Source: Fibrobacteria bacterium (lineage in GTDB: Bacteria; Fibrobacterota; Fibrobacteria; UBA11236). From it: 64,000 nt of DNA. The stretch is from positions 61,614-125,613 of the forward strand of contig JBGTHM010000032.1 of the NCBI GenBank assembly GCA_041746255.1, given 5' to 3'. Position numbers and translations under genes: made by a program. The notes beneath the pieces are model-generated. The model was not told the origin of the DNA. It ran no database searches and saw nothing but the letters and a program-made list of their open reading frames with translations. Of this stretch, positions 6,437 to 13,960 are shown in pieces; position 1 is the first letter of the stretch, and the number at the start of each line of letters is the position of its first letter.

Positions 6437-7633
6437 ATGGGTACGAAAATCAATGAAAAAGTGCTGCTGCTGATATTGGCGGCGGTACAATTCACCCATA
6501 TTCTCGATTTCATGATCGTCATGCCGCTAGGCCCCCAGTTCATCCGGGTTTTCGGCATCTCCACCGCCGAATTCGGATTTTTGATATCGGTGTATACTTT
6601 CAGCGCCGGAATCAGCGGGCTATCGGTGGCCCTCTTCATCGATCGCTTCGATCGGAAGCGTGTGCTCCTTTTCAGTTATGCCGGCTTTACCGTGGGGACG
6701 CTTTTATGCGCGCTGGCACCCACCTACGCCTTTCTGGTGGCGGCACGATTGCTGGCCGGCGCATTCGGAGGAGTAACCAGTTCGATGACGCTTGCGATCG
6801 TAGGCGACGTCATTCCGGTGGCGCGCCGTGGCTCCGCCATGGGCAAGATCATGGCGGCCTTTTCACTGGCTTCCATCGCCGGAATTCCTATCGGATTATT
6901 TCTGGCGAACCGCTGGGATTGGCACGCTCCTTTTTTCATGCTGGTCGGATTAGGCGTCTTTATCGGATTGGTGGGTTGGTATTTTTTGCCGTCCTTGCGC
7001 AGTCATCTCGTCCCTGGGGAGGAAAGGCGCAATGCTTTTCGGGAGATGCAAAGCCTGTTGTCGCACCCCAATCATCTCCGCGCCCTGTCTTTGACGGTAC
7101 TGATGACCTTTTCCGGATTCATGGTAATCCCCTATATCAGCCCCTACCTCGTCGCGAATTCCGGCCTGACGGAAGCGCAATTACCCTTTATTTACCTGAT
7201 TGGCGGTTTCTGTACCTTTTTCAGCATGCCGCTTTTCGGCAAATTGGGCGATCGGTTCGGATTATTACGGGTTTTCACCATCATGAGTCTTTTGACCATT
7301 GTACCCATCGCGGTATTAACCAATCTTCCGGTGGTGCCCTTGGGGGCGGCATTGGCAGTGACCACGCTATTCATGGTCATTTCTTCGGGCCGGATGGTTC
7401 CCGGGATGGCCATGGTGACTTCCAGTCCGGCTTCCCGCGTGCGCGGGAGTTTCATGAGCGTGAATTCGGCGGCGCAACAGTTTTCCACTTCCTTGGCGGC
7501 TTTCACGGCGGGGCTGGTTTTGCATCAAACCGCTTCCGGGGAGTTTTCGGGATACCCTAGGGTCGGGTTATTGTCGATGCTCTTTCTGATCCTGAGCGTG
7601 GTGGTGGCCCGGGGCTTGCGCTTCCAGAGGTAG
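6437..7633 (+). CDS. MFS transporter
   Basis: About 12 hydrophobic segments; motif A DRFDRK and GKLGDRFG. Confidence 0.92.
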   Translation: MGTKINEKVLLLILAAVQFTHILDFMIVMPLGPQFIRVFGISTAEFGFLISVYTFSAGISGLSVALFIDRFDRKRVLLFSYAGFTVGTLLCALAPTYAFLVAARLLAGAFGGVTSSMTLAIVGDVIPVARRGSAMGKIMAAFSLASIAGIPIGLFLANRWDWHAPFFMLVGLGVFIGLVGWYFLPSLRSHLVPGEERRNAFREMQSLLSHPNHLRALSLTVLMTFSGFMVIPYISPYLVANSGLTEAQLPFIYLIGGFCTFFSMPLFGKLGDRFGLLRVFTIMSLLTIVPIAVLTNLPVVPLGAALAVTTLFMVISSGRMVPGMAMVTSSPASRVRGSFMSVNSAAQQFSTSLAAFTAGLVLHQTASGEFSGYPRVGLLSMLFLILSVVVARGLRFQR

Positions 7634-7674
7634 CGGGCTAAGGAGCCGGGAAAAGTATGTAAATTACCTCCCTT

Positions 7675-8373
7675 ATGTCGGAAATCCGCCTCCGGGTCAG
7701 CGAAATCTACAAGTCCATCCAAGGTGAATCGACCCATGCGGGCCGGGTTTGCACCTTCATCCGCCTGGCGGGATGCAACTTGCGTTGCGCCTATTGCGAT
7801 ACCCCTTATGCCTTAAGTGCGGTATCGGGCGAGTGGTGGAACATCGAGGATATCCTAGCGCGTGTTCGCGAGTTGGGAACGGGACTGGTGGAACTGACCG
7901 GGGGCGAACCACTCCTGCAAAAGGCGACACCCGCCCTGGCGGCACGCTTGCTGGATGAGGGCTTCGAGGTGCTCATCGAGACCAGCGGGTCTTTCGATAT
8001 CGATGTTTTGCCGAGCGGGGTGAAGCGCATAATGGATGTGAAGGGACCGTGCAGCGGTGAAATCGAATCGCTTCGCCAAGAAAACCTGGAAAAGTTGCAG
8101 GCCCGTGACGAGGTGAAATTCGTCCTCCACGATCGCGAAGAATACGAGTGGGCGCGCGGCTTTCTGGCTACTCACCAACTGGATTCGCGCTGTACCGTGC
8201 TTTTCTCGCCGGTATTCGCCAATAGCGTTCCGGTCGCCCCCTACCGCAAGCCGGTGGATACGGGGCTAGCGCCCAAGGAGTTGGCGGCCTGGATTCTGGA
8301 GGACAACCTTCCCGTACGCCTCCAGCTCCAGCAACACAAGTATATTTGGTCTCCGGAAGCGCGAGGCGTTTGA
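7675..8373 (+). CDS. queE: 7-carboxy-7-deazaguanine synthase (radical SAM)
   Basis: SIQGE, FIRLAGCNLRCAYCDT, TGGEPLL, LQQHKY; adjacent to queD. Confidence 0.92.
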   Translation: MSEIRLRVSEIYKSIQGESTHAGRVCTFIRLAGCNLRCAYCDTPYALSAVSGEWWNIEDILARVRELGTGLVELTGGEPLLQKATPALAARLLDEGFEVLIETSGSFDIDVLPSGVKRIMDVKGPCSGEIESLRQENLEKLQARDEVKFVLHDREEYEWARGFLATHQLDSRCTVLFSPVFANSVPVAPYRKPVDTGLAPKELAAWILEDNLPVRLQLQQHKYIWSPEARGV

Positions 8374-8394
8374 GGGTTTTCGGCGGAGGCAATC

Positions 8395-8856
8395 ATGTAT
8401 CGAGTCAGCAAATCATTCGAGGTTGAAAGCGGCCATTTCCTGTCCAAGCACCAGGAAAAATGCAAAAATCCGCATGGCCATACCCGGCGTATTGAAATCG
8501 TAGTGGCTTCCGAATCGCTCGACGCCAACGACATGGTATGCGATTTCAAGGTTTTCAAACTGGCCGTGGGGGAATTCCTCGATTCGCTGGACCATGCCAT
8601 GCTTATCAGCACCGAATCGCCCCATCTGGAATATTTCCGTAAAGCTTTCGAAAGGGTAATTCCCGTGGAAGGGTCTGACCCCACCACCGAAGTGATGGCG
8701 CGCCTCATCTATACGCGTGTGCGTGACGAAATCGCCCGGAAGAAATCCTATACCGCCCCCTCCGGAGCCCGCTATCGTTTCCCCGAGAGCCTACGCCTCG
8801 AAAGGGTCCGGGTGTGGGAAACCTCCACCACCTGGGCGGAATTCGAGGAGAAATGA
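8395..8856 (+). CDS. queD: 6-carboxy-5,6,7,8-tetrahydropterin synthase
   Basis: ESGH, CKNPHGH (CxxxHGH), DF, LDH, PTTE, WET. Confidence 0.9.
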   Translation: MYRVSKSFEVESGHFLSKHQEKCKNPHGHTRRIEIVVASESLDANDMVCDFKVFKLAVGEFLDSLDHAMLISTESPHLEYFRKAFERVIPVEGSDPTTEVMARLIYTRVRDEIARKKSYTAPSGARYRFPESLRLERVRVWETSTTWAEFEEK

Positions 8857-9848
8857 CCGTCGCTCCGCTGCTACGGAGATTCTCCGTCGCTCCCATGATG
8901 GATTGCACCGACCGCCATTGCCGGTTTTTCCACCGGTTGCTTTCGCGGCGCATGGTGTTGTACACCGAAATGGTGACGACCGGTGCGGTCATCCATGGAA
9001 AAGCCGATAGGTTGCTGGCCTTCCATGAGGACGAACACCCGGTGGCGGTGCAATTGGGCGGAAGCGACCCGCAAGCCCTGGCACAAAGCGCTCGACGTGC
9101 GCGTGAGTTCGGCTATGACGAGGTGAACCTCAACGTGGGTTGTCCCAGCGATCGGGTCCAGTCGGGTCGTTTCGGCGCCTGCCTGATGGCCGAACCCGAT
9201 TTGGTGGCGCAATGCGTGGAAGCCATGCGCGCCGCCGTGGACTTGCCTATTACGGTCAAGACCCGCATCGGCATCGACGACAAAGACTCATACGAAGAGT
9301 TGCAGGGTTTCATTGCCAGGGTTGCGGCGGCGGGTTGCACGACTTTCATCCTGCATGCGCGCAAGGCATGGCTCAAGGGGCTCAGCCCCAAGCAGAACCG
9401 GGAAAAACCACCGCTGCGATACGACGTGGTAAGGCGCGTGAAAGCGGATTTTCCCGAATTGGAAATCATCATCAACGGCGGCATTACCGATTTGGAACAA
9501 GCGCGCGAGCATTTGCTCGTATTGGATGGGGTGATGCTCGGTCGCGAGGCTTATTCCAATCCCTATATGCTTACCGAAGTTGATTCGTCGGTATATGGAG
9601 AAACAGGAACGATACCGTCACGAGCGGATATTGTCGCGAAATACCTTCCCTATGTTCGCGCGCGCGTCGAAGAGGGTTGTCCCCTGGGAATTCTGCTCAA
9701 GCCCGTGCTGGGTCTTTATCATAACCGCTATGGCGCCCGGAGCTGGCGTCGGCACCTCAGCGAGAACATGTTCCGGCCGGGAGCCCGTCCCGAACTGCTG
9801 CTGGAGGCTCTCGACTGGGTGGAATCGGCCGCGTCTTCATCAACATGA
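8853..9848 (+). CDS. dusA: tRNA dihydrouridine(20/20a) synthase
   Basis: SVAPMMD, QLGGSDP, NLNVGCPSDRVQSGRFGACLM, HARKAWLKGLSPKQNR; ATGA overlap with queD stop. Confidence 0.95.
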   Translation: MTVAPLLRRFSVAPMMDCTDRHCRFFHRLLSRRMVLYTEMVTTGAVIHGKADRLLAFHEDEHPVAVQLGGSDPQALAQSARRAREFGYDEVNLNVGCPSDRVQSGRFGACLMAEPDLVAQCVEAMRAAVDLPITVKTRIGIDDKDSYEELQGFIARVAAAGCTTFILHARKAWLKGLSPKQNREKPPLRYDVVRRVKADFPELEIIINGGITDLEQAREHLLVLDGVMLGREAYSNPYMLTEVDSSVYGETGTIPSRADIVAKYLPYVRARVEEGCPLGILLKPVLGLYHNRYGARSWRRHLSENMFRPGARPELLLEALDWVESAASSST

Positions 9849-9867
9849 GGCTTCCGTGCCCTCCCAC

Positions 9868-10605
9868 TTATCGGTCGAGGCTGCGGAGTCCCATCATATA
9901 GCCTCCGGCAACATCCAGATTGATCCCCGTAATATAAGCTGCGCCGTCTCCTATCAGGAATTCCAGGGCGTCGCAGACATGGGAGCATTCGCCCAGATGT
10001 CCGAGAGGAATGTAATCCTTCGGTCTATCGGGAAGCTCCACGCTGTTGGAAAGGACCCCGGGAGAAATCATATTAACGCGAATGTTACGGGGTCCCAAGG
10101 CCTCGGCATGGGATTTGGTCAGTATGTAAAGACCGGTTTTGGAAACCAAGTAAGCCGTGTTGTAGGTGGAGGACGTGAGATTTTCCAGCCCGGCATAGCC
10201 GATGTTGATTATCGACCCGCCTTCGGAAGGGAAAAGCCGCAGGCTTTTCGTGATGAGATGGTAGGGTCCCACGAGATTGGTTTGCAGAGTCACATCGAAG
10301 TCGGCGGTGGGGTACTCGAGCAACTGCCCCGTTTTGTACAGGCCCACATTGTTTACCAACAGGTCGATTCGCCCCGAGGTGCGTTCAATTTCATCCACCA
10401 TAAAATCAATATCGGCTTGCCGGGCTATATCACCGCCGACTATGGCTGCGCTTCCGCCCGCGTCCTCGATTAGCCGCGCGACCTCTTTCGCTTCCTTTTG
10501 GGAAGCGCGGTAATGGACGTGCACGAAGTAACCGAGCCTCCCCAGGCGCAAGGCCATATCGCGGCCCAATCTTTTCGCCGCACCTGTTACCAGCGCCGCT
10601 TTCAT
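9868..10605 (-). CDS. Pteridine reductase-like SDR (FolM/PTR1 type)
   Basis: TGAAKRLG pteridine-reductase-type nucleotide motif, VHY, LVNN, YLVSK; ATGA overlap with folB. Confidence 0.8.
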   Translation of the reverse strand: MKAALVTGAAKRLGRDMALRLGRLGYFVHVHYRASQKEAKEVARLIEDAGGSAAIVGGDIARQADIDFMVDEIERTSGRIDLLVNNVGLYKTGQLLEYPTADFDVTLQTNLVGPYHLITKSLRLFPSEGGSIINIGYAGLENLTSSTYNTAYLVSKTGLYILTKSHAEALGPRNIRVNMISPGVLSNSVELPDRPKDYIPLGHLGECSHVCDALEFLIGDGAAYITGINLDVAGGYMMGLRSLDR

Positions 10606-10958
10606 GTCCGGGCCCTTTCGGCAGTGGCGGAAGCATGGCGGGCTGCGGGAAGCGCCGAAGGCTTTTTCACCTTCATCCGGCAACGCGTGATTTGCGGCCA
10701 TTTTTCCAAAAACAAATCGCAACCTTTTTCCGCCATGGTTTCAATCAACTTGAATTTCCGGGTTTGCGCCCAGTCCGCCAGGTAATCCGCCATGGCGGCA
10801 TAATCGACCGTATGGGAAAGTTGATCGCTCCCGGCGGCGTCCTCGAAAGGAATTTCAATTTGCACGTCCACCGACAATTCCTGCAGCATTTCGCGTTCAT
10901 GGCTGTGGACTCCGACCACGCAACGGATTTTCAAATCTTCCAGCGCCAACCATCCCAT
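10602..10958 (-). CDS. folB: Dihydroneopterin aldolase
   Basis: VGVHSHER, TVDY, LIETMAE, KVKKP; 118 aa. Confidence 0.88.
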   Translation of the reverse strand: MGWLALEDLKIRCVVGVHSHEREMLQELSVDVQIEIPFEDAAGSDQLSHTVDYAAMADYLADWAQTRKFKLIETMAEKGCDLFLEKWPQITRCRMKVKKPSALPAARHASATAERART

Positions 10959-12007
10959 TAAATCAACCCCAGGGTAAATGCATGTTCAATCAAAACCCGC
11001 GTGGGTTCGTTCAGCGGTAAAGATAATGCCTCGCGCGGCAAGGTCCAGAGATAATCCACCGCCTCGTAATTGAGAGTGACCGCAGTGCTGTCACCCGCCT
11101 CCAATTTCGCCAGATAATTGACAAGAATGAAATGCCGGGGCCGATGGAATTGGGGATGCTCAATGCAGTCCTGTACCATCACGAAATCCACTTTTCCGGG
11201 ATGGAGGCCGGTTTCTTCGCGTAACTCGCGGGAAAGGGCCTGTTCCAAGGTTTCGCCATAATCGACTTTGCCGCCGGGTATGCCATAGAGTCCCGACCAT
11301 TTTTTCGTACGCACCAAAAGGGCTTCCCCGCGCGCATTGATTACAAGAGCTCCAACGGTGGCCAGGGGAAACAGATGTTCGGCCGCCAGCGAGTCGCGGG
11401 CTGCGAAACGCTTGATGTCGGCGGCCTGGCGGAAAACCATGTCCGGCTCCGCCATTTTAAGTAGGGCTGCGTCTGAATATCCGTAGAGGGCCGCTCCCGC
11501 CTGGATGCCGTTCCGTCGTGCGGCTTCCAGGTCGTGGGGGGTGTCGCCGATCAAAATGCATTCGGTGGGCGAGTCGGTGAAAGTCTCCAGTTCGCGGGCC
11601 AACACATGGATTTTATCCCGGGCGCCGCCACGAATTTTATGGAAGAGATTCTGAAGTCCCAAGCGATTCAGGGACTCCGAAATAAGGTTTTCTTCCAGGG
11701 AAGACAGGATGAAGAGGCGATGCTCTCCGTGAAGGCAATGCAGCAGGGAGTGCATGCCTGGGTGGAGGCGGACTTCGCTGGGGTAATTCTTCCGGCAGAT
11801 TTCGGCAAACAGGTTCTCTATAGTTTCGGGATCGTGGCCCGGGGCTTTTACGGAGTAAAACGCCGCTGCGGGAAGCGAGAATTCCCGTCTATATTCCTCA
11901 TACGAAATCGATGAGCATCCCAATCCGGTGAGAGTCGCATCGGTGAGTCGCCAGGTCAATTCCTGATCGTCGGCCAGGGTCCCCGACCAGTCGAAAATAA
12001 TATCCAT
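10958..12007 (-). CDS. HAD phosphatase-NUDIX hydrolase fusion
   Basis: N-terminal IIFDWSGT, ILSS, K, IGDTPHD; C-terminal Nudix box GGKVDYGETLEQALSRELREETGL; stop overlaps folB start; start trimmed to ATG 12007. Confidence 0.88.
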   Translation of the reverse strand: MDIIFDWSGTLADDQELTWRLTDATLTGLGCSSISYEEYRREFSLPAAAFYSVKAPGHDPETIENLFAEICRKNYPSEVRLHPGMHSLLHCLHGEHRLFILSSLEENLISESLNRLGLQNLFHKIRGGARDKIHVLARELETFTDSPTECILIGDTPHDLEAARRNGIQAGAALYGYSDAALLKMAEPDMVFRQAADIKRFAARDSLAAEHLFPLATVGALVINARGEALLVRTKKWSGLYGIPGGKVDYGETLEQALSRELREETGLHPGKVDFVMVQDCIEHPQFHRPRHFILVNYLAKLEAGDSTAVTLNYEAVDYLWTLPREALSLPLNEPTRVLIEHAFTLGLI

Positions 12008-12144
12008 GTTTTTGGGTAGAAACCTCTGGGAAAAGCTACAGCGCCGATACCCTCGGCAGAAGGGCCAGAATATAGCAACCTGCCCGGACCCGGCCGAAGG
12101 CGGGAGTCGGTTTCGGAAAGGGTTTCTTGCTAGATTAACCTCAC

Positions 12145-13371
12145 ATGGGCAGGGTAGCATTTAGAGACGGGCATTGCGGCGGGATGGCCGCCATCCTTTT
12201 TTTCGTGGGTATCAGCCATGGCTTCCAAACTCCTCGCGAAGCCTCAGGCGTCAATCAAACCGCGCTCGAGGCATTCGGAGCCCGGAATGCGGGAATGGGG
12301 ACTGCCTTTGGAGGTTTCGGTGTCGATGCGAATGCTGTGGTAAACAGCCCTGGCTCCATTAACGACGTAATGGATCTCACCGTCGCTTTCGCCCATGCGG
12401 AAAGATTCGCCGAAGCCGGTTTCGATAATTTCGCAGCACTTATTCCCCTCAACGGCCGCTCCACTTTGGGCTTGGCCTTTTCGCGCTACGGAGTGGGGGG
12501 AGTGCAGATTCGTGAAGACGAAGCGCGTCGCTTTGAAGACCCGCGTTTGCTTAATATAGCCGATTACCATGCCGCCCTGGCCTTTGCCCGGCGTTGGGGA
12601 GGCTTGGATGTCGGCGCCAACCTTCACCTGTTATACCGAAGCCTGGATCAAAGTGGATTGGGTATACGCGCCGATTTGATGTCTCAGTACACGCTCTTCA
12701 GGAATTTTCGCGCGGCGGCCTTATTGCGTGGCCTGGTACCCGCGGCGGCGCGCTGGGAATCGGGTCTGATTGAATATGAAAGTCCCGATATTCATTTGTC
12801 TTTCGCATCGCGGTATCCTTCTCGATATTTCTATGGCGAAGCGCATATCGTCTACGAAACGCAAGGTATTTTTCAAAAAAATGCGAAATCAGAATCCAGA
12901 TTGAGGGGTGGCCGTGGTTGGGAAGCGCCGCTGCAATTCCTGGCTCTAGGAAGCCTGGGTGTGGAATACCTTTTCGATATGGGACTCAGTTTTCGTATGG
13001 GATTACGCGAGTTGGTTTCCCCCCAACCGAATTTCGGAATTGGATATCGGTATCGCCAACGTATCGGTATCGATTATGCCTTTTCCCCCCATCCCGATTT
13101 GCTTTCCTCTCATCGCGTCGGAATAGTAGTGACGCCCCGGTGGAAATCTTTTGATGGAGCCGGTTATCGGAATCGATTCAAGGACGAGAGTCCACGCCGG
13201 CCCCTTCCTCCCGAGGCCGGAGCCCAGCCGGATACGAACAAACCAGGGCCTGCATCGGAAGGCTGGGATGAACCGGGTGAGGAACTGAAAAGAAGTCCGG
13301 AAAATCCGGCGAAGCCTCAGGGTGCTCCGTCCATGGAAGTGCTGGAAGTTGAGGACGACTGGGATGAGTAG
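12145..13371 (+). CDS. PorV/PorQ (FadL-like) outer membrane barrel with acidic low-complexity tail
   Basis: GARNAGMGTA....DANAVVNSPG N-terminal motif; IDYAF..HPDL..SHRV C-terminal strands. Confidence 0.72.
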   Translation: MGRVAFRDGHCGGMAAILFFVGISHGFQTPREASGVNQTALEAFGARNAGMGTAFGGFGVDANAVVNSPGSINDVMDLTVAFAHAERFAEAGFDNFAALIPLNGRSTLGLAFSRYGVGGVQIREDEARRFEDPRLLNIADYHAALAFARRWGGLDVGANLHLLYRSLDQSGLGIRADLMSQYTLFRNFRAAALLRGLVPAAARWESGLIEYESPDIHLSFASRYPSRYFYGEAHIVYETQGIFQKNAKSESRLRGGRGWEAPLQFLALGSLGVEYLFDMGLSFRMGLRELVSPQPNFGIGYRYRQRIGIDYAFSPHPDLLSSHRVGIVVTPRWKSFDGAGYRNRFKDESPRRPLPPEAGAQPDTNKPGPASEGWDEPGEELKRSPENPAKPQGAPSMEVLEVEDDWDE

Positions 13372-13387
13372 CGATTTTTCGGGGAGT

Positions 13388-13960
13388 TTACCCTGAAAGC
13401 GCGTCCCGATAGCTTCGGAAAGAGGAAAATACCGAAACGACCCGGTCCAGGCCAAGCATATGTAAGCTCTCCCGTGTCGCCTCATCCTCGGTTACGATAA
13501 ATGCCGGCTTTTCCATCCGATACGCCTCTTTCAGCGCTTTCACCATCAAATTGACCAGGGTGCTGTTCAAATAGTTGCAGCTCCTCAGAACGAATGCGAG
13601 AGAGGCGAATCCTTCGGATTCCGCCTTTTCGATGAGGTCTTTCAGCATTTGAAGGCTCCCCATGTCATAGGTTGAGCCGGTAAGGTGGATCAGCAGGTTT
13701 CCATTCCAAACTTGTTTGCGTAGCCAGGGTATGTTGCTATTCGCCGTTGCGGGTTCCTGACAGTCATCGCATAGGCCTTGTTGGACCCGGATTCCGGTCA
13801 GAAAGGACCCGCAATTCCGGCAAGAGTCCCAGCCTGGCGCTTCCCACTCCACCTCATCTTCCTTTCTAAGCCCGAGGGAGGGCTTCCCGTTTGGGGTAAA
13901 CACTAGTTTAGCTTGTGAATGGGGTGAAAACAAGGTGGTTTCATCCGGTAGGGAGGTCAT
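13388..13960 (-). CDS. Zinc-ribbon plus STAS domain protein
   Basis: CRNC...CDDC followed by STAS-like IHLTG..D, YLNST, LHMLGLDRVV. Confidence 0.7.
   Translation of the reverse strand: MTSLPDETTLFSPHSQAKLVFTPNGKPSLGLRKEDEVEWEAPGWDSCRNCGSFLTGIRVQQGLCDDCQEPATANSNIPWLRKQVWNGNLLIHLTGSTYDMGSLQMLKDLIEKAESEGFASLAFVLRSCNYLNSTLVNLMVKALKEAYRMEKPAFIVTEDEATRESLHMLGLDRVVSVFSSFRSYRDALSG

Follow-up and report, generated by a model that had tools for sequence, protein, structure and literature searches.

A HAD-Nudix fusion protein coupled to FolB in Fibrobacteria, a candidate for two-domain dephosphorylation of dihydroneopterin triphosphate

Bacterial type IB GTP cyclohydrolases (FolE2) are described as making 7,8-dihydroneopterin triphosphate, and two dephosphorylation reactions precede the dihydroneopterin aldolase FolB. 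In the riboflavin pathway the 'non-specific phosphatase' step is filled by HAD phosphatases that act on 5-amino-6-ribitylamino-uracil phosphate; these enzymes keep the DxD motif and are usually unlinked and promiscuous. For the first of the two folate reactions a Nudix enzyme is known, FolQ of the Lactococcus lactis folate cluster (PMC1971073), and a FolQ-FolB fusion is tabulated for Parachlamydia (PMC1971073, Table 2). The removal of the last phosphate from dihydroneopterin monophosphate has been ascribed to a non-specific phosphatase (PMC1971073, 2007; PMC4161248, 2014, legend to Figure 1). The sequence TGX3RXG in place of TGX3GXG is the signature of FolM and PTR1 (de Crecy-Lagard et al. 2007, PMC1971073), and folM-like genes that lie in clusters with pterin-branch genes are predicted in the same paper to make tetrahydropterins. 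The Nudix enzyme FolQ, the FolQ-FolB fusion and the clustering of folM with pterin genes are thus already known. Here we describe an operon of a Fibrobacteria bacterium (assembly GCA_041746255.1, contig JBGTHM010000032.1) in which a gene for a HAD-Nudix fusion protein is coupled to folB and to a gene of the FolM/PTR1 type. It was found in a stretch of 64,000 nucleotides, which is called the window below.

Three overlapping genes of the minus strand fill positions 9868-12007 of the window exactly, as judged from the open reading frames (ORFs) and the reading of the sequence (Table 1). In the product of the first gene Pfam recognized a HAD_2 domain (E = 7.5e-20, 72.2 bits against a cut-off of 23.8) followed by a NUDIX domain (E = 8.2e-20, 71.6 bits against a cut-off of 21.1). 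The Nudix box is intact: it reads G246-x5-E252-x7-R260-E261-L-x-E264-E265-x-G-L between G246 and L268, in agreement with the consensus GX5EX7REUXEEXGU. The stop codon of the fusion gene and the start codon of folB share one nucleotide (TAATG, 10960-10956), and the stop codon of folB overlaps the start codon of the third gene, which encodes a short-chain dehydrogenase/reductase (SDR), by four nucleotides (ATGA, 10605-10602). These data agree with the preliminary description of this DNA, in which a single ORF joining a HAD phosphatase to an intact Nudix box and a coupled three-gene operon had been reported. All homologues of the fusion protein begin at the equivalent MxxIFDWSGT in the alignment; the start was therefore placed at 12007, and the longer ORF reaching to 12160 is unsupported.

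The FolB encoded by the operon (Pfam E = 7.7e-27) scored 79.6 bits with the FolB equivalog TIGR00525, above the cut-off of 72.15, but only 44.4 bits with the FolX model NF008418, whose cut-off is 152. Residues E21, Y53, E73 and K99, which correspond to catalytic residues of the Escherichia coli and Staphylococcus aureus enzymes, are at least 99% conserved in an alignment of 71 FolB sequences. Pfam family scans of the host assembly (130 contigs, rated 100% complete) found a single FolB (PF02152), the one in the operon. FolK (HPPK) and FolP gave one match each, both elsewhere, with a second Pterin_bind match inside an ORF of 1282 amino acids; FolE2 (one match) and dihydrofolate reductase (DHFR, FolA) are also encoded outside the operon. 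Neither a type I FolE nor a pterin-dependent hydroxylase (Biopterin_H) was found in this complete genome. Since it is the sole FolB of a genome that has FolK and FolP, the product of the operon's folB must serve folate synthesis. The sole FolK is itself part of a larger ORF of 449 amino acids (predicted start; genome G000, contig C14, L005:736-2085, minus strand), in which HPPK (residues 69-195) is followed by a deoxynucleoside kinase domain (243-434) and which adjoins the genes for pantoate-beta-alanine ligase and rho.

To see how widely the fusion gene is linked to folB, relatives were collected in two ways. A word-based search returned 766 relatives, of which the best 120 were examined. All of these were HAD+NUDIX proteins of approximately 350 amino acids, and they came from metagenome-assembled genomes (MAGs) labelled Fibrobacterota and Verrucomicrobiota. 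A scan using one genome per species gave 566 confirmed stretches, and the best 80 were kept as loci. Seventy-seven of these have at least 400 nt downstream of the fusion gene and could be judged for FolB, the other three ending too near the fusion. In 72 of the 77 loci the gene directly downstream, with the same orientation as the fusion gene, was folB: 63 passed a strict gap rule with a hidden Markov model (HMM) of FolB built from the loci, and in nine more the HMM match overlapped the 3' end of the fusion gene, owing to an over-extended ORF start or to fused genes. Beyond the fusion-FolB pair the flanks differ between loci (gyrA, ComEC, RRF, pseudouridine synthase and others), and among the 122 flanking ORFs of 34 of the 80 loci no other folate gene was found. 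Five Verrucomicrobia genomes were tested; each has the FolB beside the fusion as its sole FolB and encodes FolK elsewhere.

The linkage can also be covalent. When 1.84 billion representatives clustered at 50% identity were searched exhaustively with HMMER, 8281 matches were obtained at E<=1e-3, including 68 at E<=1e-30. The best 150 of the 8281 were classified, 51 of them with Pfam and all 150 with our own FolB HMM and BLAST of both halves. The architecture HAD-Nudix was found in 36, HAD-Nudix-FolB in seven, HAD-FolB in seven and Nudix-FolB in 16 of the 150; the Nudix half occurred alone or with other partners in 68 and the HAD half alone in 12 (one being a canonical tandem HAD with DLDGT, an outgroup), and four were partial. 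Thus 30 of the best 150 representatives are covalently joined to FolB. The triple fusion was also seen as one ORF in locus L071, on a contig of a Verrucomicrobiia MAG, and the Nudix-FolB form matches the FolQ-FolB fusion of Parachlamydia (see above). The search for homologues called for by the preliminary description therefore yielded both HAD-Nudix fusions and tight synteny with folB. In the Pfam classification there were also one Nudix-FolP and one PTPS-Nudix protein. The orthologues of the Nudix half that are joined to other partners (P0212, P0209, P0197, P0175 and P0206) carry FolP (Pterin_bind), PTPS, dCMP/cytidine deaminase, tetrapyrrole methylase and a Cof-type (Hydrolase_3) HAD with canonical DxD; some of these fusions may be gene-calling run-ons.

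The modules were joined to FolB recurrently and independently, in shuffled neighbourhoods and in several phyla, which is the classical mark of enzymes acting next to FolB in the pathway; very probably the function of the module lies with FolB and the pterin branch. It is most improbable that the two domains form a general house-cleaning pair, which would convert nucleoside triphosphates to monophosphates and then to nucleosides and would lie beside folB by accident. Such a pair would suit the best NCBIfam models of the Nudix half, which are nucleotide pyrophosphatases of the MutT, NudG and NudI type, all below cut-off, and also the public names of the relatives, which, where there are any, are phosphoglycolate phosphatase, ADP-ribose pyrophosphatase or NUDIX-domain protein. 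Accidental proximity is, however, hard to reconcile with FolB adjacency in 72 of 77 loci amid unrelated flanks and with covalent fusion to FolB in 30 of 150 representatives.

The reading that we favour, with moderate confidence, is that the two domains dephosphorylate dihydroneopterin triphosphate ahead of FolB. The starting compound, 7,8-dihydroneopterin triphosphate, is assumed to come from FolE2, whose gene lies elsewhere in the genome. The Nudix half would act like FolQ or NudB, converting the triphosphate to the monophosphate and pyrophosphate, and the HAD half, as a Mg-dependent phosphohydrolase working through an aspartyl-phosphate, would convert the monophosphate to dihydroneopterin. 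This would be handed to FolB, the product of the next, overlapping gene, and the SDR, as a FolM-like dihydropterin reductase, would draw on substrates or products of FolB. Because two reactions precede FolB and a Nudix enzyme is known for the first, the HAD domain is the natural candidate for the last phosphate. The domains, the gene overlaps, the uniqueness of FolB, the synteny and the fusions were observed directly, whereas we infer which substrates the two hydrolases use and in which order they act. On this comparative evidence the Nudix domain is likely to be a dihydroneopterin-triphosphate pyrophosphatase, and we lean slightly towards the HAD domain being a dihydroneopterin-phosphate phosphatase.

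A small Nudix domain whose box is intact is common to the Nudix half and to FolQ (L. lactis YlgG), Arabidopsis NUDT1 and E. coli NudB. The REx2EE core was intact in all 80 related loci; the full pattern of the box failed in 27, in most of which the last G is replaced by N, D or M. The best PDB sequence matches of the Nudix half were 4dyw (2.1e-10) and Arabidopsis Nudix hydrolase 1 (3.7e-7), and a Foldseek search with the AlphaFold2 (AF2) model of the fusion (pLDDT 92.3, pTM 0.82) placed it among small MutT, NudI and NUDX1-like enzymes. Like the FolQ of L. lactis, which lies within the folKEPQC cluster and has a FolB-fused counterpart in Parachlamydia (PMC1971073), it is physically linked to genes of the folate pterin branch. 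Unlike FolQ, NUDT1 and NudB, the present Nudix belongs to a separate, HAD-fused subfamily, which is set apart by its score with the NudB model (see below). FolQ3, listed as 'Putative DHNTP pyrophosphatase' in the supplement to PMC6593275, where its protein family is not stated, may be this Nudix. A stand-alone NUDIX gene additional to the fusion is found just upstream of it in two Verrucomicrobia loci (L021:2612-3295 and L030:3928-4458).

The HAD half has the motifs D6-W-S8-G-T10 (I), S102 (II), K132 (III) and G154-D155-T-P-H158-D159 (IV). In an alignment of 20 sequences D6, S/T102, K132, D155 and D159 showed little or no variation, so that the nucleophile and motifs II, III and IV of HAD enzymes are all present. 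In sequence and fold it is closest to the phosphoglycolate-phosphatase-like HADs of COG0546, with which it shares the core and the four-helix cap: the closest solved sequences were 2ah5 and two phosphoglycolate phosphatases of Aquifex, 2yy6 and 2nyv (PDB sequence search), and in the Foldseek search the HAD half of the AF2 model lay near 2ah5, 3sd7, 2nyv and 3mc1, of the C1-cap, COG0546 type. The aligned chains of 2ah5 and 2yy6 differ from it in having DLDGT as motif I and Phe or Ala at the position of the invariant His of motif IV. Motif I was DWSGT in 66, DWAGT in 48 and DFSGT in two of the 120 homologues, four being truncated at the N-terminus. In the 80 loci it was DWSGT in 77 and DWAGT in two, with one truncated. 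Fifty-nine representatives have an N-terminal HAD alignment, and in these DWSGT occurred 49 times, DWAGT three times and DWSGV twice, and DFSGT, DWCGT, DFAGT and DHCGT were found once each, along with the DLDGT of the outgroup. An Asp two residues after the nucleophile (Asp+2) was therefore lacking in 116 of 116 non-truncated homologues and 79 of 79 loci. It was also lacking in 58 of 59 representatives; the one that has it is a tandem canonical HAD and is unrelated. The preliminary description had noted DxS rather than DxD in motif I; this was correct and extends to the whole family, which has DW[S/A]GT and never DxD. All 80 loci and the HAD-FolB proteins have GDxxHD, with its invariant His, as motif IV, and so do the stand-alone members examined, with two exceptions. 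The HAD half is thus, by its sequence, a distinct subfamily defined by DW[S/A]GT and GDxxHD.

Two annotations were tried for this subfamily and rejected. As a phosphoglycolate phosphatase (Gph) it reached 51.2 bits with the best equivalog, NF009695 (NCBIfam), against a cut-off of 225. The motif DWAGT is reminiscent of phosphonoacetaldehyde hydrolase; the phosphonatase model gave 18.6 bits against a cut-off of 220, and the alignment has no invariant cap-domain Lys for a Schiff base. These values also bear on the idea that FolB would cleave the monophosphate directly, releasing glycolaldehyde phosphate, which the HAD would detoxify. The closest named HAD families are indeed phosphoglycolate phosphatases, whose substrate is one oxidation state away, the likeness of DWAGT points in the same direction, and a HAD-FolB fusion is as compatible with a step right after FolB as with one right before it. 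With both models far below their cut-offs and the Lys missing, we consider this very improbable; moreover, no FolB is known to use the monophosphate.

The two-domain dephosphorylation of dihydroneopterin triphosphate has to be set against a number of observations that weigh against it. In HAD enzymology Asp+2 is the general acid/base, and hydrolysis of the phosphomonoester of a primary alcohol normally requires it; the residue is Ser here and Ser, Ala or Cys in all members of the subfamily examined. The Nudix half scored 19.6 bits with the NudB equivalog NF006961 (NCBIfam), the cut-off being 103, and its likeness to Arabidopsis NUDT1 is generic. Five of the 77 judged loci (L028, L058, L059, L082 and L088) have no FolB downstream. 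Further points came from the window's own phylum, in which 31 of 201 genomes matched at E<=1e-20 (30 of 200 without the unpublished G194). Fourteen of the 31 matches were full or nearly full length, two began at residue 66 or 75 and three at approximately residue 140, and 12 comprised only the Nudix half, with up to 59% identity. Sixteen of the 31 loci were inspected. Full fusions were found in three and separate HAD (DFNGT, GDTNHD) and Nudix genes in one. Four loci belong to a sister genus of the same family; there FolB and SDR come after a Nudix of 143-186 amino acids that stands alone, without HAD. In five the fusion had an N-terminal HAD remnant without catalytic motifs; in one such remnant (L098) the Asp, Gly and Thr of motif I and both Asp residues of motif IV are replaced. 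FolB adjoined the module in 10 of the 16 loci and did not in six. With the present HAD as query no relocated HAD orthologue was found in five HAD-less genomes, where the search gave only weak paralogues (E 1e-4 to 3e-6) and, in one genome, none at all. Of the 201 genomes 153 have FolB (152 of 200 if G194 is left out). In one family of the phylum (f3) FolB was present in 77 of 78 genomes and the module in none of the 78; the module is therefore one solution among several. Finally, in a sample of 201 genomes from the phylum of genome G201, 22 genomes matched at E<=1e-20, six with the full fusion and 16 with the HAD half only. In all 16 the HAD was joined to FolB, in 15 as one ORF and in one as two genes overlapping by 4 nt, and no Nudix orthologue was found in these genomes, either within 3 kb on either side or genome-wide at E<=1e-20.

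These results show that the HAD half is the less constrained part. Mean pairwise identity in the 20-sequence alignment was 37% for the HAD half and 53.5% for the Nudix half; since the HAD half is both less conserved and lost or decayed in relatives, the Nudix is the more constrained of the two. From its distribution the HAD is an accessory: some lineages have only a decayed form of it, and others have it with FolB but without the Nudix. The pattern of its loss fits a step that generic phosphatases can back up, and the functions of the two separable halves may overlap rather than form an obligatory two-step machine. The earlier proposal that the fusion carries out both steps stands as far as its link to folate synthesis is concerned, which is borne out by the comparative linkage and the sole FolB. 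It is qualified in two respects: the halves are separable, and the assignment of each step to a domain is one that we infer.

How a HAD without Asp+2 could act on the monophosphate may be considered in terms of the two functions of that residue. Its side chain contacts the substrate phosphate, whereas Mg is bound by the backbone carbonyl at the same position (PMC10541634); the Mg contact is therefore kept in spite of the substitution by Ser or Ala. We propose the invariant His158 as a putative proton donor in place of Asp+2. In many HADs its position is occupied by Asn, which there contacts the phosphoryl group.

Among the HAD-FolB proteins, one cluster of 62 members includes proteins of Akkermansia muciniphila named 'HAD hydrolase-like protein'. 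The folate table curated by Rodionov et al. (2019, PMC6593275 supplement) has FolE2, FolB, FolK, FolP, FolA and FolC filled for A. muciniphila ATCC BAA-835 and the columns FolQ, FolQ2 and FolQ3 empty. One possibility is that in HAD-FolB proteins without Nudix the HAD removes all three phosphates, which would fit an acid-less active site suited to phosphoanhydride leaving groups. A tentative extension of the favoured reading is that the whole HAD subfamily might be a dedicated dihydroneopterin-phosphate phosphatase, using the His as a proton shuttle and feeding its product directly to FolB inside a single polypeptide or complex, and that in Akkermansia-type HAD-FolB proteins it might replace FolQ.

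It is also conceivable, though we regard it as unlikely, that the HAD serves FolB otherwise than as a monophosphatase, by cleaving the pyrophosphate released by the Nudix or the triphosphate itself, and that alone with FolB it replaces FolQ. An enzyme that never has Asp+2 would cleave only good leaving groups; the HAD-FolB genomes lack the Nudix orthologue in the searches described above; the PpaX pyrophosphatase is among the best NCBIfam models of the HAD half, at 38 bits, which is far below cut-off; and the table cited above (PMC6593275) assigns no FolQ to Akkermansia. In contrast, the two halves of the fusion would then be redundant, and yet both are retained in 36 of the 150 representatives, and seven more join both to FolB. 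Cells also have a general pyrophosphatase, and the known HAD-type pyrophosphatases keep DxD. A bypass of the Chlamydia type, in which RibA and TrpF lead to the monophosphate (PMC4161248), was considered for the HAD-FolB genomes and rejected: FolE2 was found in 21 and FolE in one of the 22 genomes with the HAD module, so that with a cyclohydrolase in all of them the triphosphate is presumably made and the bypass is without support. The window's genome likewise has FolE2, and the prevalence of FolE2 among the carriers of the HAD module may reflect phylogeny.

The third gene of the operon was compared with E. coli FolM, Leishmania PTR1 and TmpR. Its product has in common with them the SDR fold (Pfam adh_short_C2, E = 1.8e-42), the TGX3RXG sequence (TGAAKRLG, residues 7-14), YxxxK at Y152 and the clustering with pterin genes, and TGX3RXG was present in 14 of 14 folB-linked SDR orthologues. 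Unlike TmpR and the pteridine reductases, it falls below both equivalog cut-offs: the best NCBIfam model, TmpR (dihydropteridine/dihydrofolate reductase), gave 184.1 bits against 325 and the pteridine reductase equivalog 126.9 bits against 288, and its genome also holds a canonical DHFR. The SDR follows FolB in only six of the best 80 loci. It is probably a clade-specific, FolM-like add-on that reduces a 7,8-dihydropterin (neopterin, monapterin or hydroxymethylpterin). In two loci a gene for a transporter of the Vut_1 family, which includes the queuosine-precursor transporter YhhQ, lies directly upstream of the fusion-FolB-SDR unit (L015:4255-4995 and L020:4240-4995).

The presence of such an SDR raises the question whether, by a route like that of FolX and FolM, the operon mainly supplies a reduced cofactor, a pterin of the tetrahydromonapterin or tetrahydroneopterin type, rather than folate. 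The TGX3RXG sequence, a dihydropteridine reductase as best model and the prediction of tetrahydropterins for pterin-clustered folM-like genes (PMC1971073) are in line with this, as is the ability of FolB to epimerize dihydroneopterin to dihydromonapterin (PMC1971073). But a sole FolB in a genome with FolK and FolP must feed folate, the protein passed the FolB cut-off and failed that of FolX, no pterin-dependent aromatic amino acid hydroxylase was found in the genome, and the SDR stands behind FolB in only the few loci mentioned. We therefore consider a cofactor as the main product quite improbable, and the monapterin route, offered as an alternative in the preliminary description, is unsupported as the main function in view of the FolB and FolX scores and the rarity of the SDR; a tetrahydropterin side branch in the clade that has the SDR is plausible.

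In the literature searched, most subscription journals lying outside its scope, no HAD enzyme was found to be tied to dihydroneopterin phosphates, and neither was a HAD-Nudix or HAD-FolB architecture or a DW[S/A]GT/GDxxHD subfamily. The HAD phosphatases of the riboflavin pathway resemble the present HAD as proposed here in belonging to subfamily IA with a C1-cap and in removing the last phosphate of a GTP-derived vitamin intermediate; unlike them, the present subfamily has DW[S/A]GT and GDxxHD and either adjoins the enzyme that comes next in the pathway or is fused to it. What is offered here is a concrete candidate gene for the 'non-specific phosphatase' step, in the form of a delimited HAD subfamily with FolB synteny across phyla and three kinds of covalent fusion. 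FolQ is unassigned in many genomes, that of A. muciniphila included, in the curated reconstruction of 2019 (PMC6593275). If the proposal is true, predictions of folate prototrophy would improve for gut and environmental Verrucomicrobiota, Fibrobacterota and relatives, the annotations 'phosphoglycolate phosphatase' and 'HAD hydrolase-like' would be corrected, and a catalytic variant functioning without the canonical Asp+2 would be added to the HAD enzymes.

Table 1. Features of the folB operon and of the genes converging on it (positions in the window)
Feature	Position	Strand	Remarks
HAD-Nudix fusion, 349 amino acids	12007-10958	-	ATG at 12007, TAA at 10960-10958
HAD phosphohydrolase domain, fusion residues 1-205	11393..12007	-	Pfam HAD_2, residues 3-171
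Nudix pyrophosphohydrolase domain, residues 206-349, including stop codon	10958..11392	-	Pfam NUDIX, residues 216-340
folB, dihydroneopterin aldolase, 118 amino acids	10602..10958	-	ATG at 10958-10956, TGA at 10604-10602
FolM/PTR1-type SDR, 245 amino acids	9868..10605	-	ATG at 10605-10603, TAA at 9870-9868
5' intergenic region of the operon	12008..12144	-	divergent from plus-strand ORF at 12145; no recognized element
queE	7675-8373	+	converges on operon
queD	8395-8856	+	converges on operon
dusA	8814-9848	+	converges on operon

The operon is met by the converging genes queE, queD and dusA (Table 1). The substrate of QueD, too, is dihydroneopterin triphosphate. A functional link was considered and rejected, the adjacency not being conserved in relatives: a QueD-like match near the fusion was seen in L017 alone among the best 80 loci, approximately 4 kb off, and in none of the 16 inspected loci of the phylum. 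The arrangement was therefore treated as a coincidence. An Rfam scan of positions 7000-13500 gave no match at E<=1, hence no riboswitch or RNA leader was seen. A promoter scan found no promoter-like match in 12008-12144, and the promoter and terminator scans gave nothing above shuffled sequences that bears on the operon.

In three of the loci without FolB downstream (L028, L059 and L088) the fusion is followed instead by a small ORF of approximately 75-80 amino acids with a CDGSH-like Cys/His motif. On the other strand L028 has a gene of the IMPDH/GMP-reductase family (Pfam), and L059 an ORF with a near-identical start.

Divergent from the operon the window has a plus-strand ORF of 408 amino acids without a Pfam match (12145-13371), and beyond it a minus-strand gene for a protein of 190 amino acids with a weak STAS match (13388-13960). 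The same position upstream of the fusion is taken in L011 by an ORF of 401 amino acids without a Pfam match and a STAS-domain ORF. The fusion of L011 is the closest relative of the window's fusion among the best 80 of the 566 stretches (76% identity), and its MAG contig bears the label Bifidobacteriales. L045 and L069, both Verrucomicrobia-like, carry Bifidobacteriaceae labels, and all three labels look inconsistent with the gene content.

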